Part shown: piece after piece, positions 414-8,731 of the stretch
Position numbering within the stretch: the first letter of the stretch is position 1
How the letters are laid out: the number at the start of each line of letters is the position of its first letter
Origin: a virus
Taxonomy: Duplodnaviria; Heunggongvirae; Uroviricota; Caudoviricetes
Virus record (IMG/VR): IMGVR_UViG_2778261459_000009
Coordinates: 1-8,976 of that record
Reading direction: 5' to 3' (one strand)
DNA length: 8,976 nt
Position numbers and translations under genes: made by a program
Notes under the pieces: generated by a model
What the model saw: the letters and a program-made list of their open reading frames with translations, nothing else
Told to the model about the DNA's origin: nothing
Databases searched by the model: none

Positions 414-1770
<1,357 letters not shown>

Positions 1771-1964: not shown

Positions 1965-2122
1965 AGCATTCAAAGCAGAAGGCTTTGGGGTGTGTGATAC
2001 GAAACGAAGCATTGGCCGGAAGTGCGAATCCGGATTAGCTGCAAATGAGCCAATCGTGGGGTGTTTTCGTTCAGGACTACGACTCACACACACCACCAAA
2101 GCTAACTGACAAGAGAATCCAG

Positions 2123-2446
2123 ATGGATGCACAAACACGCCGCCGCGAACGTCGCGCAGAGAAACAGGCTCAATGGAAAGCAGCAAATCCCCTGTTGGTT
2201 GGGGTAAGCGCAAAACCAGTTAACCGCCCTATTCTCTCGCTGAATCGCAAACCGAAATCACGAGTAGAAAGCGCACTGAATCCGATAGACCTTACGGTGC
2301 TGGCTGAATACCACGAACAGATTGAAAGCAACCTGCAACGTATTGAGCGCAAGAATCATCGAGTTTGGTATAGCAAGCCAAGTGAGTTCGGTATAACTTG
2401 TCAAGGAAGACAAAAGGTTAAAGGGAAATCCATTCCATTGGCATGA
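2123..2446 (+). CDS. N: Antitermination protein N (107 aa), lambda-type, with arginine-rich boxB-binding motif
   Basis: MDAQTRRRERRAEKQAQWKAANPLLVGVSAKPVNRPILSLNRKPKSRVESALNPIDLTVLAEYH... closely matches lambda N as I recall it. The track ORF start at 2045 is an upstream in-frame extension. Confidence 0.92.
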   Translation: MDAQTRRRERRAEKQAQWKAANPLLVGVSAKPVNRPILSLNRKPKSRVESALNPIDLTVLAEYHEQIESNLQRIERKNHRVWYSKPSEFGITCQGRQKVKGKSIPLA

Positions 2447-2454
2447 GGTACGTA

Positions 2455-3324
2455 ATGAAGAAAATTGATTACAAGTCCATACCAAAACCAATAGACTCAG
2501 CATCAGAGCGAAAAAAACACAAAAAAGAGGCTGAAAAATTAGCAAATTATATCAGTTTTATTAGAAACAATGCTCACGGCGATGGCGACAGGAAGTTGCT
2601 TTCAGATGCCCGGACCCAAGCGTTCAGTATACTTCGTAAGCAGATGCAATATCGTCTTCATCCTGGCTACATAATTGAAATTCGCCCGACTGAAAGACAA
2701 TTGTTCTTATTAAACTCTGTCTTTGACTTTGTAAACGTAGTTGGAGATCTTATCGACAGGTCTGTAGATAAGGCTCCTGATACAAATAGTTTTCTTCTAA
2801 CAAATAAAGAATACTTATATGGTAAATTTGGTATAAACGGATGGCAAAAATATGTACGATTCTTACGTGCATTCGTTGATGCGTATAAAAATTCCGACAT
2901 GATTTATACATATTTGCCTGGTGGTGATAATTGTACGCTTTCGGCAGACAATAGAATATTCATACCTATACTTGGTCTTGGGCTGATTAATGCAGTAAAT
3001 GAAAGAGATGTTATAATTGTTAAGCAGTGGCGAAAGCATGAGGGATATAGATATCTGCCATGCTTTGATATATTAAAAATACAGAATAAATTCTATGTAA
3101 AAATTAAATATAAAGAAGATGTTTTCTTCCTCAGAAAAAACAAAGATCTTTTACAAGAACTTTCTGGGACAATAGATGTCATCGTAGGTTCTAGGTTTAT
3201 AAAAGAACTGAAAGAAAGCAGGTCTTTCTCTCGTGTAGAGATAAGCGAGTCAGAGTTATGGGGTATATCAAATAATCCTGTAAACCACGCTCACCAACGA
3301 AATCCAAACAAAAAGTGGTCATAA
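2455..3324 (+). CDS. AT-rich cargo gene of unknown function (289 aa) immediately downstream of N, in the position of lambda sieB/ral; candidate superinfection-exclusion or defence protein
   Basis: A 293-codon ORF begins at 2443; the likely start is the ATG at 2455, with a GAGG ribosome-binding site at 2446-2449. The base composition is visibly lower in GC than the flanking N and cIII regions, with long runs of AAA/ATA codons. I see no transmembrane segment and no motif I can name. A hairpin terminator follows directly. Confidence 0.75.
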   Translation: MKKIDYKSIPKPIDSASERKKHKKEAEKLANYISFIRNNAHGDGDRKLLSDARTQAFSILRKQMQYRLHPGYIIEIRPTERQLFLLNSVFDFVNVVGDLIDRSVDKAPDTNSFLLTNKEYLYGKFGINGWQKYVRFLRAFVDAYKNSDMIYTYLPGGDNCTLSADNRIFIPILGLGLINAVNERDVIIVKQWRKHEGYRYLPCFDILKIQNKFYVKIKYKEDVFFLRKNKDLLQELSGTIDVIVGSRFIKELKESRSFSRVEISESELWGISNNPVNHAHQRNPNKKWS

Positions 3325-3909: not shown

Positions 3910-4221
3910 ATGATGATTCTGACTCTGAATGATAAGCGTGAAATATCGCAAATAATCGCAAGTTTTACTGATGAAGATTACGAACGAATCAACAGTGAAG
4001 TTGATCGCCTCTGCAAACGTTGCGACCCAATAAGCGAAATGCTTCGCTCATATAAACCAGATGAACATACTAAGGATGCTATCGACTGGCTGGAAGATGA
4101 TGACTGTAACTATCAGGAAAAAGCCGCTGAATGGTTCTGGGATGCAATAACCGAAAGAGTTAAGGCTGAATATGCCTTCGCAATATTTAAACGCAGACAC
4201 ATTTTTGGAGAAGCTGCATGA
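3910..4221 (+). CDS. Acidic hypothetical protein (103 aa) with a CxxC pair, immediately upstream of recT
   Basis: An AGGAG ribosome-binding site lies 4-7 nt before the ATG at 3910/3913. The stop overlaps the recT start (ATGA at 4218-4221). The protein has about 24 Asp/Glu against about 15 Lys/Arg, and includes CKRC. Confidence 0.65.
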   Translation: MMILTLNDKREISQIIASFTDEDYERINSEVDRLCKRCDPISEMLRSYKPDEHTKDAIDWLEDDDCNYQEKAAEWFWDAITERVKAEYAFAIFKRRHIFGEAA

Positions 4222-5120
4222 GCAATATCGTTGAATTCGTTAAACAGCAAGAGCAGTTATTCTGCGGAGCATTGACTGAACAGACGGTGACATGGGCTAA
4301 GGAAAGCCAGTTTGCAATTCAGTATTTCCAGAAAAACGATTACCTGGCTAAAACAGCACTGGCAAATCCAACCAGCGCACAGAACGCCATCATCAATGTT
4401 GCGGCGATCGGCATCACCTTAAACCCGGCCAGCAAACTGGCTTATCTGGTTCCTCGCGACGGCATGGTGTGCCTTGATATCAGTTACATGGGATTACTTC
4501 ACCTTGCACAGTCGACAGGATCAATTAAGTGGGGGCAATGCAAACTGGTGTACTCAAACGACACCTATGAATCAAACGGCCTTGATTCAGCACCAACCCA
4601 CAAATACAACGCATTTGGTGAGCGAGGCTCTATTGTTGGTGGTTATTGTACGGTTAAAACAGCAGATGGTGACTACCTCACTGAAGAAATGAGTCTGGCA
4701 GAAATTAAAGCTGTGGAAGCAACGAGCAAGGCAAAGAATGGACCGTGGAAGACATTCTGGGAAGAGATGGCGCGTAAAACAATAGTTAAACGCGCCAGCA
4801 AATACTGGCCTAAAGCCCAGCGACTGGATAATGCCATTCACCTGCTTAACGAAGATGAAGGTATGCATCAGGAACCAGTTATGCCGCACAAATCAGAGGA
4901 AGATATCCGCGAAGATGAACGGAAACGCCAGCAGGAAATTATGGAAAAAGCACAACTTCTTTGTGATGAAATGGTTCAGGCAGAAAACATGGATGATTTG
5001 AAGCGATATTTTGCAGAAGCATATCGCCTGACATCTGGAATGAAATTGCAGCAGAACGTACAAGCCATTTACATAGAATGCAAAGCGAAACTGGAGGTTG
5101 CCAGTGAGCAAACTGTATGA
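4218..5120 (+). CDS. recT: RecT/Red-beta family single-strand annealing protein (300 aa)
   Basis: NGPWKTFWEEMARKTIVKRASKYWP closely parallels the NGPWVTHWEEMAKKTAIRRLFKYLP segment of E. coli Rac RecT as I recall it. The overall length and layout fit the RecT family. Confidence 0.85.
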   Translation: MSNIVEFVKQQEQLFCGALTEQTVTWAKESQFAIQYFQKNDYLAKTALANPTSAQNAIINVAAIGITLNPASKLAYLVPRDGMVCLDISYMGLLHLAQSTGSIKWGQCKLVYSNDTYESNGLDSAPTHKYNAFGERGSIVGGYCTVKTADGDYLTEEMSLAEIKAVEATSKAKNGPWKTFWEEMARKTIVKRASKYWPKAQRLDNAIHLLNEDEGMHQEPVMPHKSEEDIREDERKRQQEIMEKAQLLCDEMVQAENMDDLKRYFAEAYRLTSGMKLQQNVQAIYIECKAKLEVASEQTV

Positions 5121-6524: not shown

Positions 6525-6745
6525 GCGGAAAAAGAATGACTAACAGAGAGCTTGTCGATGCCGCGATTAAGCTTGCTGGTGATTTTTATTCAATGATGGG
6601 GTACACGCATCGCCCAGGCTTCAAATATTGGGAGTCTCCTCACCCGCAAGAGCAACAGGTATTTCAAATGGCCTGCCGTGCTTTTGAGGTTATTCGCGGT
6701 TCTGATGTGATGGACGCCGTTGCCGACTTGGAGGATGAAGAGTGA
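6521..6745 (+). CDS. Hypothetical small protein (74 aa), GTG start
   Basis: The GTG at 6521 overlaps the upstream stop (GTGA). An AGGAG ribosome-binding site at 6509-6513 lies 7 nt upstream. Confidence 0.6.
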   Translation: MSGKRMTNRELVDAAIKLAGDFYSMMGYTHRPGFKYWESPHPQEQQVFQMACRAFEVIRGSDVMDAVADLEDEE

Positions 6746-7311
6746 ACAAGATTGACTATCAGGCACTGCATGAAAAGGCAGAGAAAGCAACGTGGGGAGA
6801 CTGGGACTCATATAAACCACACCGTGGCGCACGTGGTTATGAGGTCCGACTAAGTAGTCAGGCCATTGCGCAACACGTTCTGAAAAACAACGCTGAATTT
6901 ATTGCTGCCTTTAATCCAAAGGTTGCTTTGGCACTACTGGATGAACGGGAAAGAAACCAGCAATACATCAAACGCCGCGACCAGGAGAACGAGGAAATTG
7001 CGCTAACGGTAGGGAAGCTGCGTGTTGAGCTGGAAGCCGCAGAGGAGCGCATTGCAGAACTGGAAAGCAACGAAGTCCGTGAAGTCGGAAATCAGTTTCT
7101 TGTTGTTCGCCATCCTGGGAAAACTCCTGTCATCAAGCACTGCACTGGTGACCTGGAAGAGTTTCTGCGGAAGTTAATCGAACAAGACCCGTTAGTAACT
7201 ATCGACATCATTACGCATCGCTATTACGGGATTGGCGGTCAATGGGTTCAGGATGCAGTTGAGTATCTGCATATGATGTCTGACGCTGGCATTCGCATCA
7301 AAGGAGATTGA
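6742..7311 (+). CDS. Ea22-like (ead/Ea22 family) early-region accessory protein (189 aa), GTG start
   Basis: The GTG at 6742 overlaps the upstream stop (GTGA). A GGAGGA ribosome-binding site lies 6 nt upstream. The N-terminus IDYQALHEKAEKATWGDW and the central coiled coil resemble prophage Ea22-like proteins as I recall them; this assignment is tentative. Confidence 0.55.
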   Translation: MNKIDYQALHEKAEKATWGDWDSYKPHRGARGYEVRLSSQAIAQHVLKNNAEFIAAFNPKVALALLDERERNQQYIKRRDQENEEIALTVGKLRVELEAAEERIAELESNEVREVGNQFLVVRHPGKTPVIKHCTGDLEEFLRKLIEQDPLVTIDIITHRYYGIGGQWVQDAVEYLHMMSDAGIRIKGD

Positions 7312-7312
7312 T

Positions 7313-7798
7313 ATGACCACTTTCACCGACAAAGAAATGATTAAAGAAATCAAAGAACGCATAGGCAGCCTGGACGCTCGAGACAATATTGAGCGCCGTG
7401 CTTATGAAATTGCTCTGGCATCGCTGGAAGCAGAGCCGGTGGCGTGGAGGGTAACATTCACGCAAATTGACCGTGAATATAACACGTTCACTGGTATGTA
7501 TTCTGACAAAGCAGAAGTCGAACGGTGGGTGCGGCTGCATAAAGCATGTAATTTTCGGGCAGATATAACACCGCTTTACACCGCCCAGCCAGTTCCGGTA
7601 ACTCCGGATGGTTGGATTCCGGTAAGCGAAAGGATGCCGGAACCTTATGAATACGTTCTTGTAACTGATGGTTTTGATGGCTGTGAGGTTATGCGTGTTA
7701 ATACAGATGGCTACTGGGGGCCAGCAAAGAGTTTATATCCAGGTAGTATTACCCACTGGATGCCACTGCCAGCAGCACCGCAGCAGGAGGTGAAGTGA
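7313..7798 (+). CDS. DUF551-domain protein (161 aa)
   Basis: The C-terminal region DGWIPVSERMPEPYEYVLVTDG...GYWGP...ITHWMPLPAAP matches the W..V.E.LP...VLV....W....THWMPLP signature of DUF551. An AAGGAG ribosome-binding site lies 6 nt upstream of the ATG at 7313. Confidence 0.75.
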   Translation: MTTFTDKEMIKEIKERIGSLDARDNIERRAYEIALASLEAEPVAWRVTFTQIDREYNTFTGMYSDKAEVERWVRLHKACNFRADITPLYTAQPVPVTPDGWIPVSERMPEPYEYVLVTDGFDGCEVMRVNTDGYWGPAKSLYPGSITHWMPLPAAPQQEVK

Positions 7799-7986
7799 GT
7801 ATGAGTGCATCACTTATAACCGCCTTCAATCAAAGTGCAAATCCAAGCAATGAGCAGGTTGTTGTGTTCGGCTGGATTGCTGAGTATTTCGAAAGCATTT
7901 TCGACGATGAATCCGCTAGGTATTGCAGGAATATTTCTGAATCACTCAAAAATCAGGTTTCTGCTCAACAGGTGGTGAAGTCGTGA
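7795..7986 (+). CDS. Hypothetical small protein (about 61-63 aa)
   Basis: The GTG at 7795 overlaps the upstream stop, with AGGAGG just upstream. An alternative ATG lies at 7801. Confidence 0.5.
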   Translation: MSMSASLITAFNQSANPSNEQVVVFGWIAEYFESIFDDESARYCRNISESLKNQVSAQQVVKS

Positions 7987-8201
7987 GCAAGCACATCATC
8001 AAATATGACTATCGAGAGGGAGTTAAACTCCCTAAGCACGAGATTGAGACATGGTGCGGTCATCGGCCAGGGTCATTCGAATGGCTTTTTCAGGATGCTC
8101 AGCATGCGCTATTGAGCATTGATCAGGGAACGCTGCTTGTTCCTTGCAAGAATTGTCTGGCAGCAATCATCAAAACGGCGCAGGAGGTTAACCGTGGCTA
8201 A
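7983..8201 (+). CDS. Hypothetical small protein (72 aa) with a C-x-H ... C-x2-C arrangement, a possible zinc-binding fold
   Basis: The GTG at 7983 overlaps the upstream stop (GTGA). The translation contains ETWCGHRPG and VPCKNCL. Confidence 0.55.
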   Translation: MSKHIIKYDYREGVKLPKHEIETWCGHRPGSFEWLFQDAQHALLSIDQGTLLVPCKNCLAAIIKTAQEVNRG

Positions 8202-8478
8202 CCTGCAACTTGCCGTCAACGGTGAATACTTCGATGCCATGATTAGCGGAGAGAAAACGGAAGAGTATCGCCTGTGTAATGACTACTGGAATAAGCGAAT
8301 TATGTTCCGTGAGTATGACCGCCTGATTATCACAAAGGGATATCCGAAGCGCGACGATTCCAGCCGCAGAATTGATGTTCCGTATGACGGATATGAAATC
8401 AAGACAATCACACATCCGCACTTCGGTGATAAACCGGTAAAGGTGTTCGCGATAAAGGTGAATATAGGCAATGAATAA
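8194..8478 (+). CDS. ASCH-like (DUF3850-type) domain protein (about 94 aa)
   Basis: GTG at 8194 with an AGGAGG ribosome-binding site 6 nt upstream. The N-terminus ANLQLAVNGEYFDAMISGEKTEEYRLCND parallels the ...EYF.A..SG.KT.E.R.ND pattern of phage ASCH/DUF3850 proteins. The track ORF start at 8119 is an upstream extension through the preceding gene. Confidence 0.6.
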   Translation: MANLQLAVNGEYFDAMISGEKTEEYRLCNDYWNKRIMFREYDRLIITKGYPKRDDSSRRIDVPYDGYEIKTITHPHFGDKPVKVFAIKVNIGNE

Positions 8479-8550
8479 CAATCCTCGCACTCGCGGGGAT
8501 TTCTTTTATCTGAACTCGCTACGGCGGGTTTTATTTTATGGAGATGATAA

Positions 8551-8718
8551 ATGCACTTCCGAGTCACAGGTGAATGGAATGGAGAGCCATTCAACAGAGT
8601 TATCGAAGCAGAGAACATCAATGACTGCTATGACCACTGGATGCTATGGGCGCAGATAGCACATGCAGACATAACCAATATTCGAATTGAAGAACTGAAA
8701 GAACACCAAGCCGCCTGA
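8551..8718 (+). CDS. Small hypothetical protein (55 aa), not in the supplied track
   Basis: ATG at 8551 with a GGAG ribosome-binding site 7 nt upstream. The translation is MHFRVTGEWNGEPFNRVIEAENINDCYDHWMLWAQIAHADITNIRIEELKEHQAA. The stop sits inside the terminator hairpin that follows. I prefer this to the overlapping track ORF 8471-8659, whose translation is low-complexity. Confidence 0.45.
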   Translation: MHFRVTGEWNGEPFNRVIEAENINDCYDHWMLWAQIAHADITNIRIEELKEHQAA

Positions 8719-8731
8719 TGGCGGTTTTTTA
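8710..8731 (+). terminator. Rho-independent terminator closing the early-left gene chain
   Basis: Stem gccgcc (8710-8715) and ggcgg (8720-8724) with loop tgat, followed by tttttt at 8725-8730. Confidence 0.65.

Follow-up and report, generated by a model that had tools for sequence, protein, structure and literature searches.

Characterised ASCH proteins include YqfB (an ac4C amidohydrolase), ZmASCH (a single-stranded RNA nuclease) and TRIP4-ASCH (DNA binding), and the domain is defined by an octapeptide of the pattern G-x-K-x-x-E-x-R. The ZmASCH protein of Zymomonas mobilis (PDB 5guq/5gus) is a single-stranded RNA-specific ribonuclease of about 145 aa with extra elements, and its deposited structures carry mutations at Y47 and S128. 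Stand-alone ASCH proteins of prokaryotes include PDB 3iuw (Enterococcus faecalis), PH0355 (2z0t) and PF0470 (1xne). In YqfB, the N4-acetylcytidine amidohydrolase of E. coli (PDB 9kyf/9kyh), the catalytic triad is Lys21-Thr24-Glu74 plus Arg26, with Thr24 acting as the nucleophile, and the published description speaks of "the domain's conservative octapeptide" (PMC9599836). ASCH genes have already been annotated in phages, namely HK022_34, VT2-Sakai H0074, HF4s_0022 ("putative RNA-binding protein") and AG11_49; a literature search on the roles of phage ASCH proteins returned annotation-level mentions only.

The stretch of DNA analysed here (8,976 nucleotides from a virus of the Caudoviricetes; hereafter, the window) encodes a 94-aa ASCH-like protein directly downstream of a 72-aa protein with a Cys/His motif. 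Dissimilar from the stand-alone prokaryotic ASCH proteins, the 94-aa protein is phage-borne, is too divergent for Pfam and possesses GYPxRDD and THPHFG motifs of its own; compared with ZmASCH, it is shorter and has no position 128. The annotated phage ASCH genes are of the same length as the gene in the window and are 86-97% identical to it in lambdoid and Stx phages, and about 72% identical in Jersey-like phages; in the lambdoid phages the same gene occupies the same position before tL4/xis, but with another upstream neighbour. The 72-aa protein belongs to PHROG 4090 (SETP3 ORF48, mEp043 gp32), a family without an assigned function, Pfam model or structure, and the zinc-type signature described below is absent from the annotations of this family that were examined.

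Genes of the early-left operon

The window contains, on the + strand, the early-left (pL) operon of a lambda-like prophage (Table 1). A Gp157-family protein is also encoded in this operon, and downstream of the DUF551 gene come three small ORFs, then a 55-aa ORF and, at the right end, an excisionase-like gene (xis). The immunity region shares 98% identity with that of phage 434. At most 48% of the window is covered by any one phage record, as is typical of a mosaic. Searches of the whole window against Rfam gave no matches.

Table 1. Positions in the window of the genes and signals discussed in the text.
Feature	Position	Strand	Evidence
LexA/S24-type (S24/HTH), 434-type repressor	737-1369	+	
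N antiterminator with N36 peptide	2045-2446	+	
RecT	4218-5120	+	
Ea22-like protein	6742-7311	+	
DUF551 (EaA C-terminal-like) gene	7313-7798	+	PF04448, E 1.6e-12
63-aa ORF (phrog_23654), directly 5' of the 72-aa gene	7795-7986	+	
72-aa protein gene (phrog_4090)	7983-8201	+	
94-aa stand-alone ASCH/PUA-like domain protein gene (phrog_625)	8194-8478	+	
Cassette junction GCAGGAGGTTAACCGTGGCTAA: ribosome-binding site, ASCH start, 72-aa stop	8180-8201	+	
Intrinsic-terminator-like hairpin and T-rich tail, directly 3' of the ASCH stop	8480-8510	+	terminator scan

The two ORFs described in the first-pass annotation, as well as the Cys/His motifs it had read in the first of them, were confirmed in place on the + strand. 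The 72-aa ORF starts with a GTG at 7983 that overlaps the TGA stop (7984-7986) of the 63-aa ORF in the sequence GTGA, and ends with a TAA at 8199-8201. The ASCH ORF was listed by the ORF program from a TTG at 8119; the start assigned here is instead the GTG at 8194, which gives a protein of 94 aa ending at the TAA at 8476-8478. An AGGAGG (8182-8187) lies 6 nt 5' of this GTG, and the start overlaps the stop of the 72-aa gene (GTGGCTAA). The same 94-aa start is annotated by RefSeq in E. coli NT1F10 and by GenBank in HK022 and HF4s. Start/stop overlaps also recur elsewhere in the operon (7795/7798 and 7983/7986).

Nucleotide differences were counted at the first, second and third codon positions, and amounted for the 72-aa gene to 15/12/39 against XY1 and 26/21/47 against SETP3, and for the ASCH gene to 24/12/55 against phage AG11 and 28/25/66 against Vibrio phage PV94. 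The excess at third positions of the + frame in both comparisons indicates that the two are real genes under purifying selection. Furthermore, the 72-aa protein matches phrog_4090 over its full length (E 1e-41), and the 94-aa protein matches phrog_625 (E 1e-50). Opposite the ASCH gene, a 100-aa ORF on the minus strand (8188-8490) gives a full-length match to phrog_20945 (E 3e-63). This ORF was rejected as a gene: it is the third positions of the + frame that carry the substitutions, and in distant homologues the reading frame is shorter or interrupted (longest stretch 58-86 codons, compared with 100 in the window). From these sequence patterns, phrog_20945 looks like a family of mis-called shadow ORFs.

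The hairpin downstream of the ASCH stop (8480-8501, followed by the T-rich tail) aligns with the feature annotated as "tL4 terminator" in the HK022 record X51962.1, and the ASCH gene is the last gene before this counterpart of tL4. A second terminator-like hairpin was seen at 8512-8531 (+), and another 3' of the 55-aa ORF at 8708-8727 (+).

Two further ORFs of the operon were observed. An AT-rich (GC 0.32-0.38) ORF of 293 aa at 2443-3324 (+), directly after N, matches phrog_12139, with no match in Pfam or PADLOC; the family of Nun-like transcription termination factors is matched by its 20 C-terminal residues, and a "Nun C-terminal peptide-containing protein" is annotated here in records of phage 434. 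A 158-aa ORF at 1294-1770 (+), which begins within the 3' end of the repressor gene, matches phrog_2651 and encodes a hydrophobic, signal-like segment. Lambdoid prophages often carry exclusion genes expressed in the lysogen at this position.

Adjacency of the 72-aa and ASCH genes

The occurrence of the two genes was surveyed in 5,426 complete E. coli genomes. A combined query matched 1,736 genomes, and this number is an upper bound for the ASCH gene (about 1,700 genomes), because nearly all of them match through ASCH only. The 72-aa gene was found in 39 genomes, and the two genes lie side by side in 14; in these 14 the combination is at least tolerated and inherited. Next to the 72-aa gene on its 3' side is a DUF4752 gene in mEp043, FORC_041 and VG48B2, and other small genes in strain 602687, while in Citrobacter and other metagenomic prophages the 72-aa gene belongs to another operon, the nin region, with a DUF551 gene on one side and ninB on the other. 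In SETP3, XY1, Vibrio phage NF and IME10, as well as at 17 loci from Enterobacter, Citrobacter and metagenomes, the 2-3 kb around the 72-aa homologue are free of ASCH homologues.

The ASCH gene likewise has many other neighbours. Its 5' neighbours in E. coli are DUF551, DUF4752, DUF550, pyrophosphohydrolase-domain or hypothetical genes, and it is found without the 72-aa gene in HK022 (behind a DUF551 gene), AG11, Vibrio phage PV94 and a Ralstonia phage (behind an ORF without Cys). In PV94, the ASCH gene is preceded by a small unrelated gene that follows a replication gene; this 70-aa gene was considered as a counterpart of the 72-aa gene and was rejected, as it lacks the Cys/His motif. In HF4s, a frameshift splits the 72-aa gene into two pieces (locus L001, 3230-3435), each annotated as a short "putative phage protein", and a DUF4752-like gene separates the split gene from the ASCH gene.

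Jersey-like lytic Salmonella phages have one slot after a divergent early promoter, in the order small ORF, X, DUF551. The X position is occupied by the 72-aa gene in SETP3 (locus L003, 2956-3222) and by the ASCH gene in AG11 (locus L014, 3001-3276), and in this slot the two genes are alternatives, not partners. Adjacency across divergent genomes, by which a conserved two-gene module would be recognised, was thus not seen, with no co-occurrence at the divergent loci examined. The 63-aa ORF was rejected as a conserved partner of the 72-aa protein: of the prophages with the 72-aa gene, mEp043, HF4s and NT1F10 have this ORF and FORC_041 and VG48B2 lack it, and the upstream position in XY1, SETP3 and Vibrio phage NF encodes unrelated proteins.

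The junction between the two genes was compared with that of HK022. The 22 bases that contain the ribosome-binding site, the ASCH start and the upstream stop are identical in the window and in HK022 (locus L002, 2502-2523), where they end an unrelated DUF551 gene, and both upstream proteins share the last six codons (...QEVNRG, followed by the stop). In mEp043, where a DUF4752 gene comes next, the 72-aa protein ends in ...TAQVVK and the stop. The matches to the ASCH gene in E. coli begin at positions 191-213 of the query, corresponding to 8173-8195 of the window. The shared junction and these match starts indicate that the ribosome-binding site and the overlap constitute the 5' boundary of the ASCH cassette, and that this segment is carried along in recombination, so that the C-terminus of the upstream gene is rewritten. 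The two genes in the window may well be translationally coupled, as their overlap suggests; however, overlaps are the rule along the operon, and the overlap therefore says nothing specific about this pair. As read from the sequence, it is recombination at a gene boundary that brought the 72-aa and ASCH genes together in the window.

The proposal that the two proteins form a functional unit is not supported by these comparisons, given that the pair is confined to 14 of the 5,426 E. coli genomes, that each gene has many other neighbours and that the junction belongs to the ASCH cassette. Altogether, the two genes are probably separate accessory cassettes of the lambda-like pL operon, encoding an ASCH fold and a putative zinc mini-protein, and not a working pair. 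Both ORFs would be dispensable cassettes of the mosaic "ea" region, joined by recombination at a gene boundary, and both would be expressed early from pL by antitermination; the overlap and strong ribosome-binding site would ensure translation of the ASCH gene behind whatever gene recombination places 5' of it.

If the 72-aa protein does have a functional partner, the DUF551 domain, rather than ASCH, could be considered. A natural fusion joins the zinc domain to DUF551 in a 174-aa protein (P0195), although this is one fusion among the ten longer members that were scanned with Pfam, out of the best 150 representatives. A DUF551 gene lies directly upstream of the 72-aa family gene in FORC_041 and at the Citrobacter and metagenome loci, and two genes 5' of it in the window, NT1F10, mEp043 and HF4s, and a DUF551 fragment lies 3' of it in SETP3; however, DUF551 genes abound across these accessory regions and are no less frequent beside the ASCH gene, and the 72-aa gene occurs with no DUF551 nearby in VG48B2, in Vibrio phage NF and at loci L016-L020. 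A true partnership with DUF551 is consequently unlikely. The recurrence of DUF551 beside the 72-aa family (loci L010 and L021-L030) may reflect a true partner or merely the commonest cassette.

Fold and conserved residues of the 94-aa protein

The separate-cassette account treats the 94-aa protein as an ASCH-fold protein in its own right. NCBI names its homologues "ASCH domain-containing protein"; however, the gathering thresholds of Pfam ASCH (PF04266) and DUF3850 (PF12961) are not reached by the 94-aa protein, and NCBIfam gave no match. The score against Pfam ASCH is 13.6 bits compared with a cut-off of 21.2 (E 0.12) and covers residues 7-28 only. Among 52 homologues, 13 match ASCH weakly (best E 0.0078) and four match DUF3850 (best E 0.022). 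Sequence searches of the PDB with the protein and with its profile returned nothing meaningful. An AlphaFold2 model built from an alignment of the 52 homologues, down to 46% identity, has a pLDDT of 86.4 and consists of a PUA-like beta-barrel with flanking helices that superposes on solved ASCH domains; its best structural matches are uncharacterised ASCH proteins (3iuw and PH0355) and not YqfB.

The Pfam-matched residues include the octapeptide G19-E-K21-T-E-E24-Y-R26, which follows the ASCH pattern. In the 52 homologues K21 and R26 are invariant and G19 and E24 are at least 90% conserved; other conserved polar residues are R35, Y50, D55, R59, T73, H74 and H76, and the GYPxRDD and THPHFG motifs are conserved in the family as well. 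The NCBI naming, the octapeptide and the AlphaFold2 model identify the 94-aa protein as ASCH, and at the level of the predicted fold its assignment as a minimal stand-alone ASCH/PUA-like beta-barrel is supported. The ASCH-like domain called in the first-pass annotation is accordingly borne out at fold level by structure prediction, though it lies below the Pfam threshold. The pattern of conserved polar residues suggests a ligand pocket or active site. K21, E24, R26, R35, Y50, D55, R59, T73, H74 and H76 may line the usual ASCH cleft, and by analogy with characterised ASCH proteins the ligand of the 94-aa protein, and possibly its substrate for hydrolysis, would be single-stranded nucleic acid, a modified base or a nucleoside.

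If the 94-aa protein were a YqfB/EOLA1-type enzyme, its substrate would be a modified cytidine (ac4C) or a related modified nucleoside, which would lose an N-acyl group, and its activity would feed salvage or alter host RNA. The octapeptide of the 94-aa protein is in register with G19-R-K21-T-I-T24-I-R26 of YqfB when the profile is aligned by hhalign to the YqfB sequence, and K21 and R26 are shared; however, the octapeptide alone was aligned, at an insignificant probability of 0.2, and the closest structures are 3iuw and PH0355. By the published triad, moreover, the 94-aa protein is rejected as a YqfB-type N4-acylcytidine amidohydrolase, since the position of the nucleophile Thr24 is occupied by Glu24, a residue that is near-invariant in the family. 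This type of activity is therefore quite improbable for the 94-aa protein.

The zinc-type signature of the 72-aa family

The 72-aa protein matches no family in Pfam or NCBIfam and no similar solved structure was found for the family. Its phage homologues are 54-94% identical to it, and a profile search of 1.84 billion cluster representatives retrieved 468 clusters at E <= 0.001; the family occurs in early regions of both temperate and lytic phages, whose hosts include Enterobacteria and Vibrio. Conservation was assessed in an alignment of 141 of the 468 cluster representatives. The window protein contains W-C25-G-H27 (C-x-H) and P-C55-K-N-C58 (C-x2-C), from which a zinc-binding module had been proposed. 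C25, C55 and C58 are present in 141 of 141 representatives and H41 in 140 of 141, while at position 4 there are 107 His and 29 Cys among the 141, a swap of the kind expected at a metal ligand. W24, G26, W34, F36 and D38 are also conserved. H27, by comparison, is unconserved and is replaced by R, A, K or E in homologues.

The resulting signature is [H/C]-x(~20)-W-C-G-x7-W-x-F-x-D-x2-H-x13-C-x2-C. Four invariant Cys/His ligands, with interchange of Cys and His allowed, are the mark of a generic structural zinc mini-domain, and the family displays this arrangement. These patterns suggest that the 72-aa protein is a small domain held by one Zn2+ on four of [H/C]4, C25, H41, C55 and C58. The earlier proposal of a zinc module thus holds for the conserved Cys/His constellation, which is kept in homologues with the sole loss of H27, but not for its C-x-H element, and the ligand set differs from the one first put forward. 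With low confidence, this zinc-stabilised mini-domain may act alone by binding a host or phage macromolecule.

Nucleic-acid binding is plausible for both proteins, and the first-pass annotation had suggested that the Cys/His and ASCH proteins might form a two-component nucleic-acid-targeting unit with an anti-defence or regulatory role, the genes being translationally coupled; in such a unit the coupling would keep the stoichiometry. The stop/start overlap with a strong ribosome-binding site between the genes is in keeping with such a unit, but the same ribosome-binding site and overlap stand behind the DUF551 gene in HK022, and gene overlaps are general in the operon. Similarly, the same arrangement has been inherited in 14 E. 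coli genomes, but these represent 14 of the approximately 1,700 ASCH-bearing and 14 of the 39 genomes that carry the 72-aa gene, and the pair is missing from every more distant locus examined. PADLOC defence models matched neither of the two proteins nor their neighbours, and a literature search for an anti-defence or regulatory role of either protein found nothing. Taken together, these data make the two-component unit very unlikely.

It is likewise very unlikely that a known zinc module has a degenerate relative in the 72-aa protein. Two modules were considered. The cytidine-deaminase signature H-A-E...P-C-x2-C is resembled by H41-A-x...P54-C55-x2-C58, and sub-threshold matches exist (10 of 119 members hit four deaminase families of Pfam, and the profile hits APOBEC3G), but the catalytic Glu is absent and the five-stranded deaminase fold is unmatched. 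The zinc-binding domain of the ClpX-type C4 treble-clef finger (PF06689) shows equal spacing where it aligns over H-x13-C-x2-C (E about 0.4), but its two C-x2-C knuckles and treble-clef fold are not found in the 72-aa protein. The Pfam scan of the 119 family members gave noise only (E6, deaminase families and the ClpX finger). The resemblance to deaminases was judged to be motif convergence.

The ASCH gene is an already-annotated and very common prophage gene, and the 72-aa family, although catalogued, is the more interesting of the two. Tentatively, the 72-aa protein could represent an undescribed zinc-binding fold and inhibit or modulate a host factor on its own and, separately, the phage ASCH protein could be a modified-nucleoside enzyme with Glu24. 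The main use of the analysis is that a wrong inference is prevented: genes that overlap and adjoin each other in the mosaic accessory regions of lambda-like phages are not thereby marked as a functional pair, and here the coupling signal demonstrably travels with the downstream ASCH cassette. Furthermore, a prophage gene carried by about one in three complete E. coli genomes encodes an ASCH-fold protein missed by Pfam. Finally, a widespread family of small phage proteins carries a clear, previously unannotated zinc-type signature, and this 72-aa family would be a sensible choice for structure determination and phage early-gene screens.
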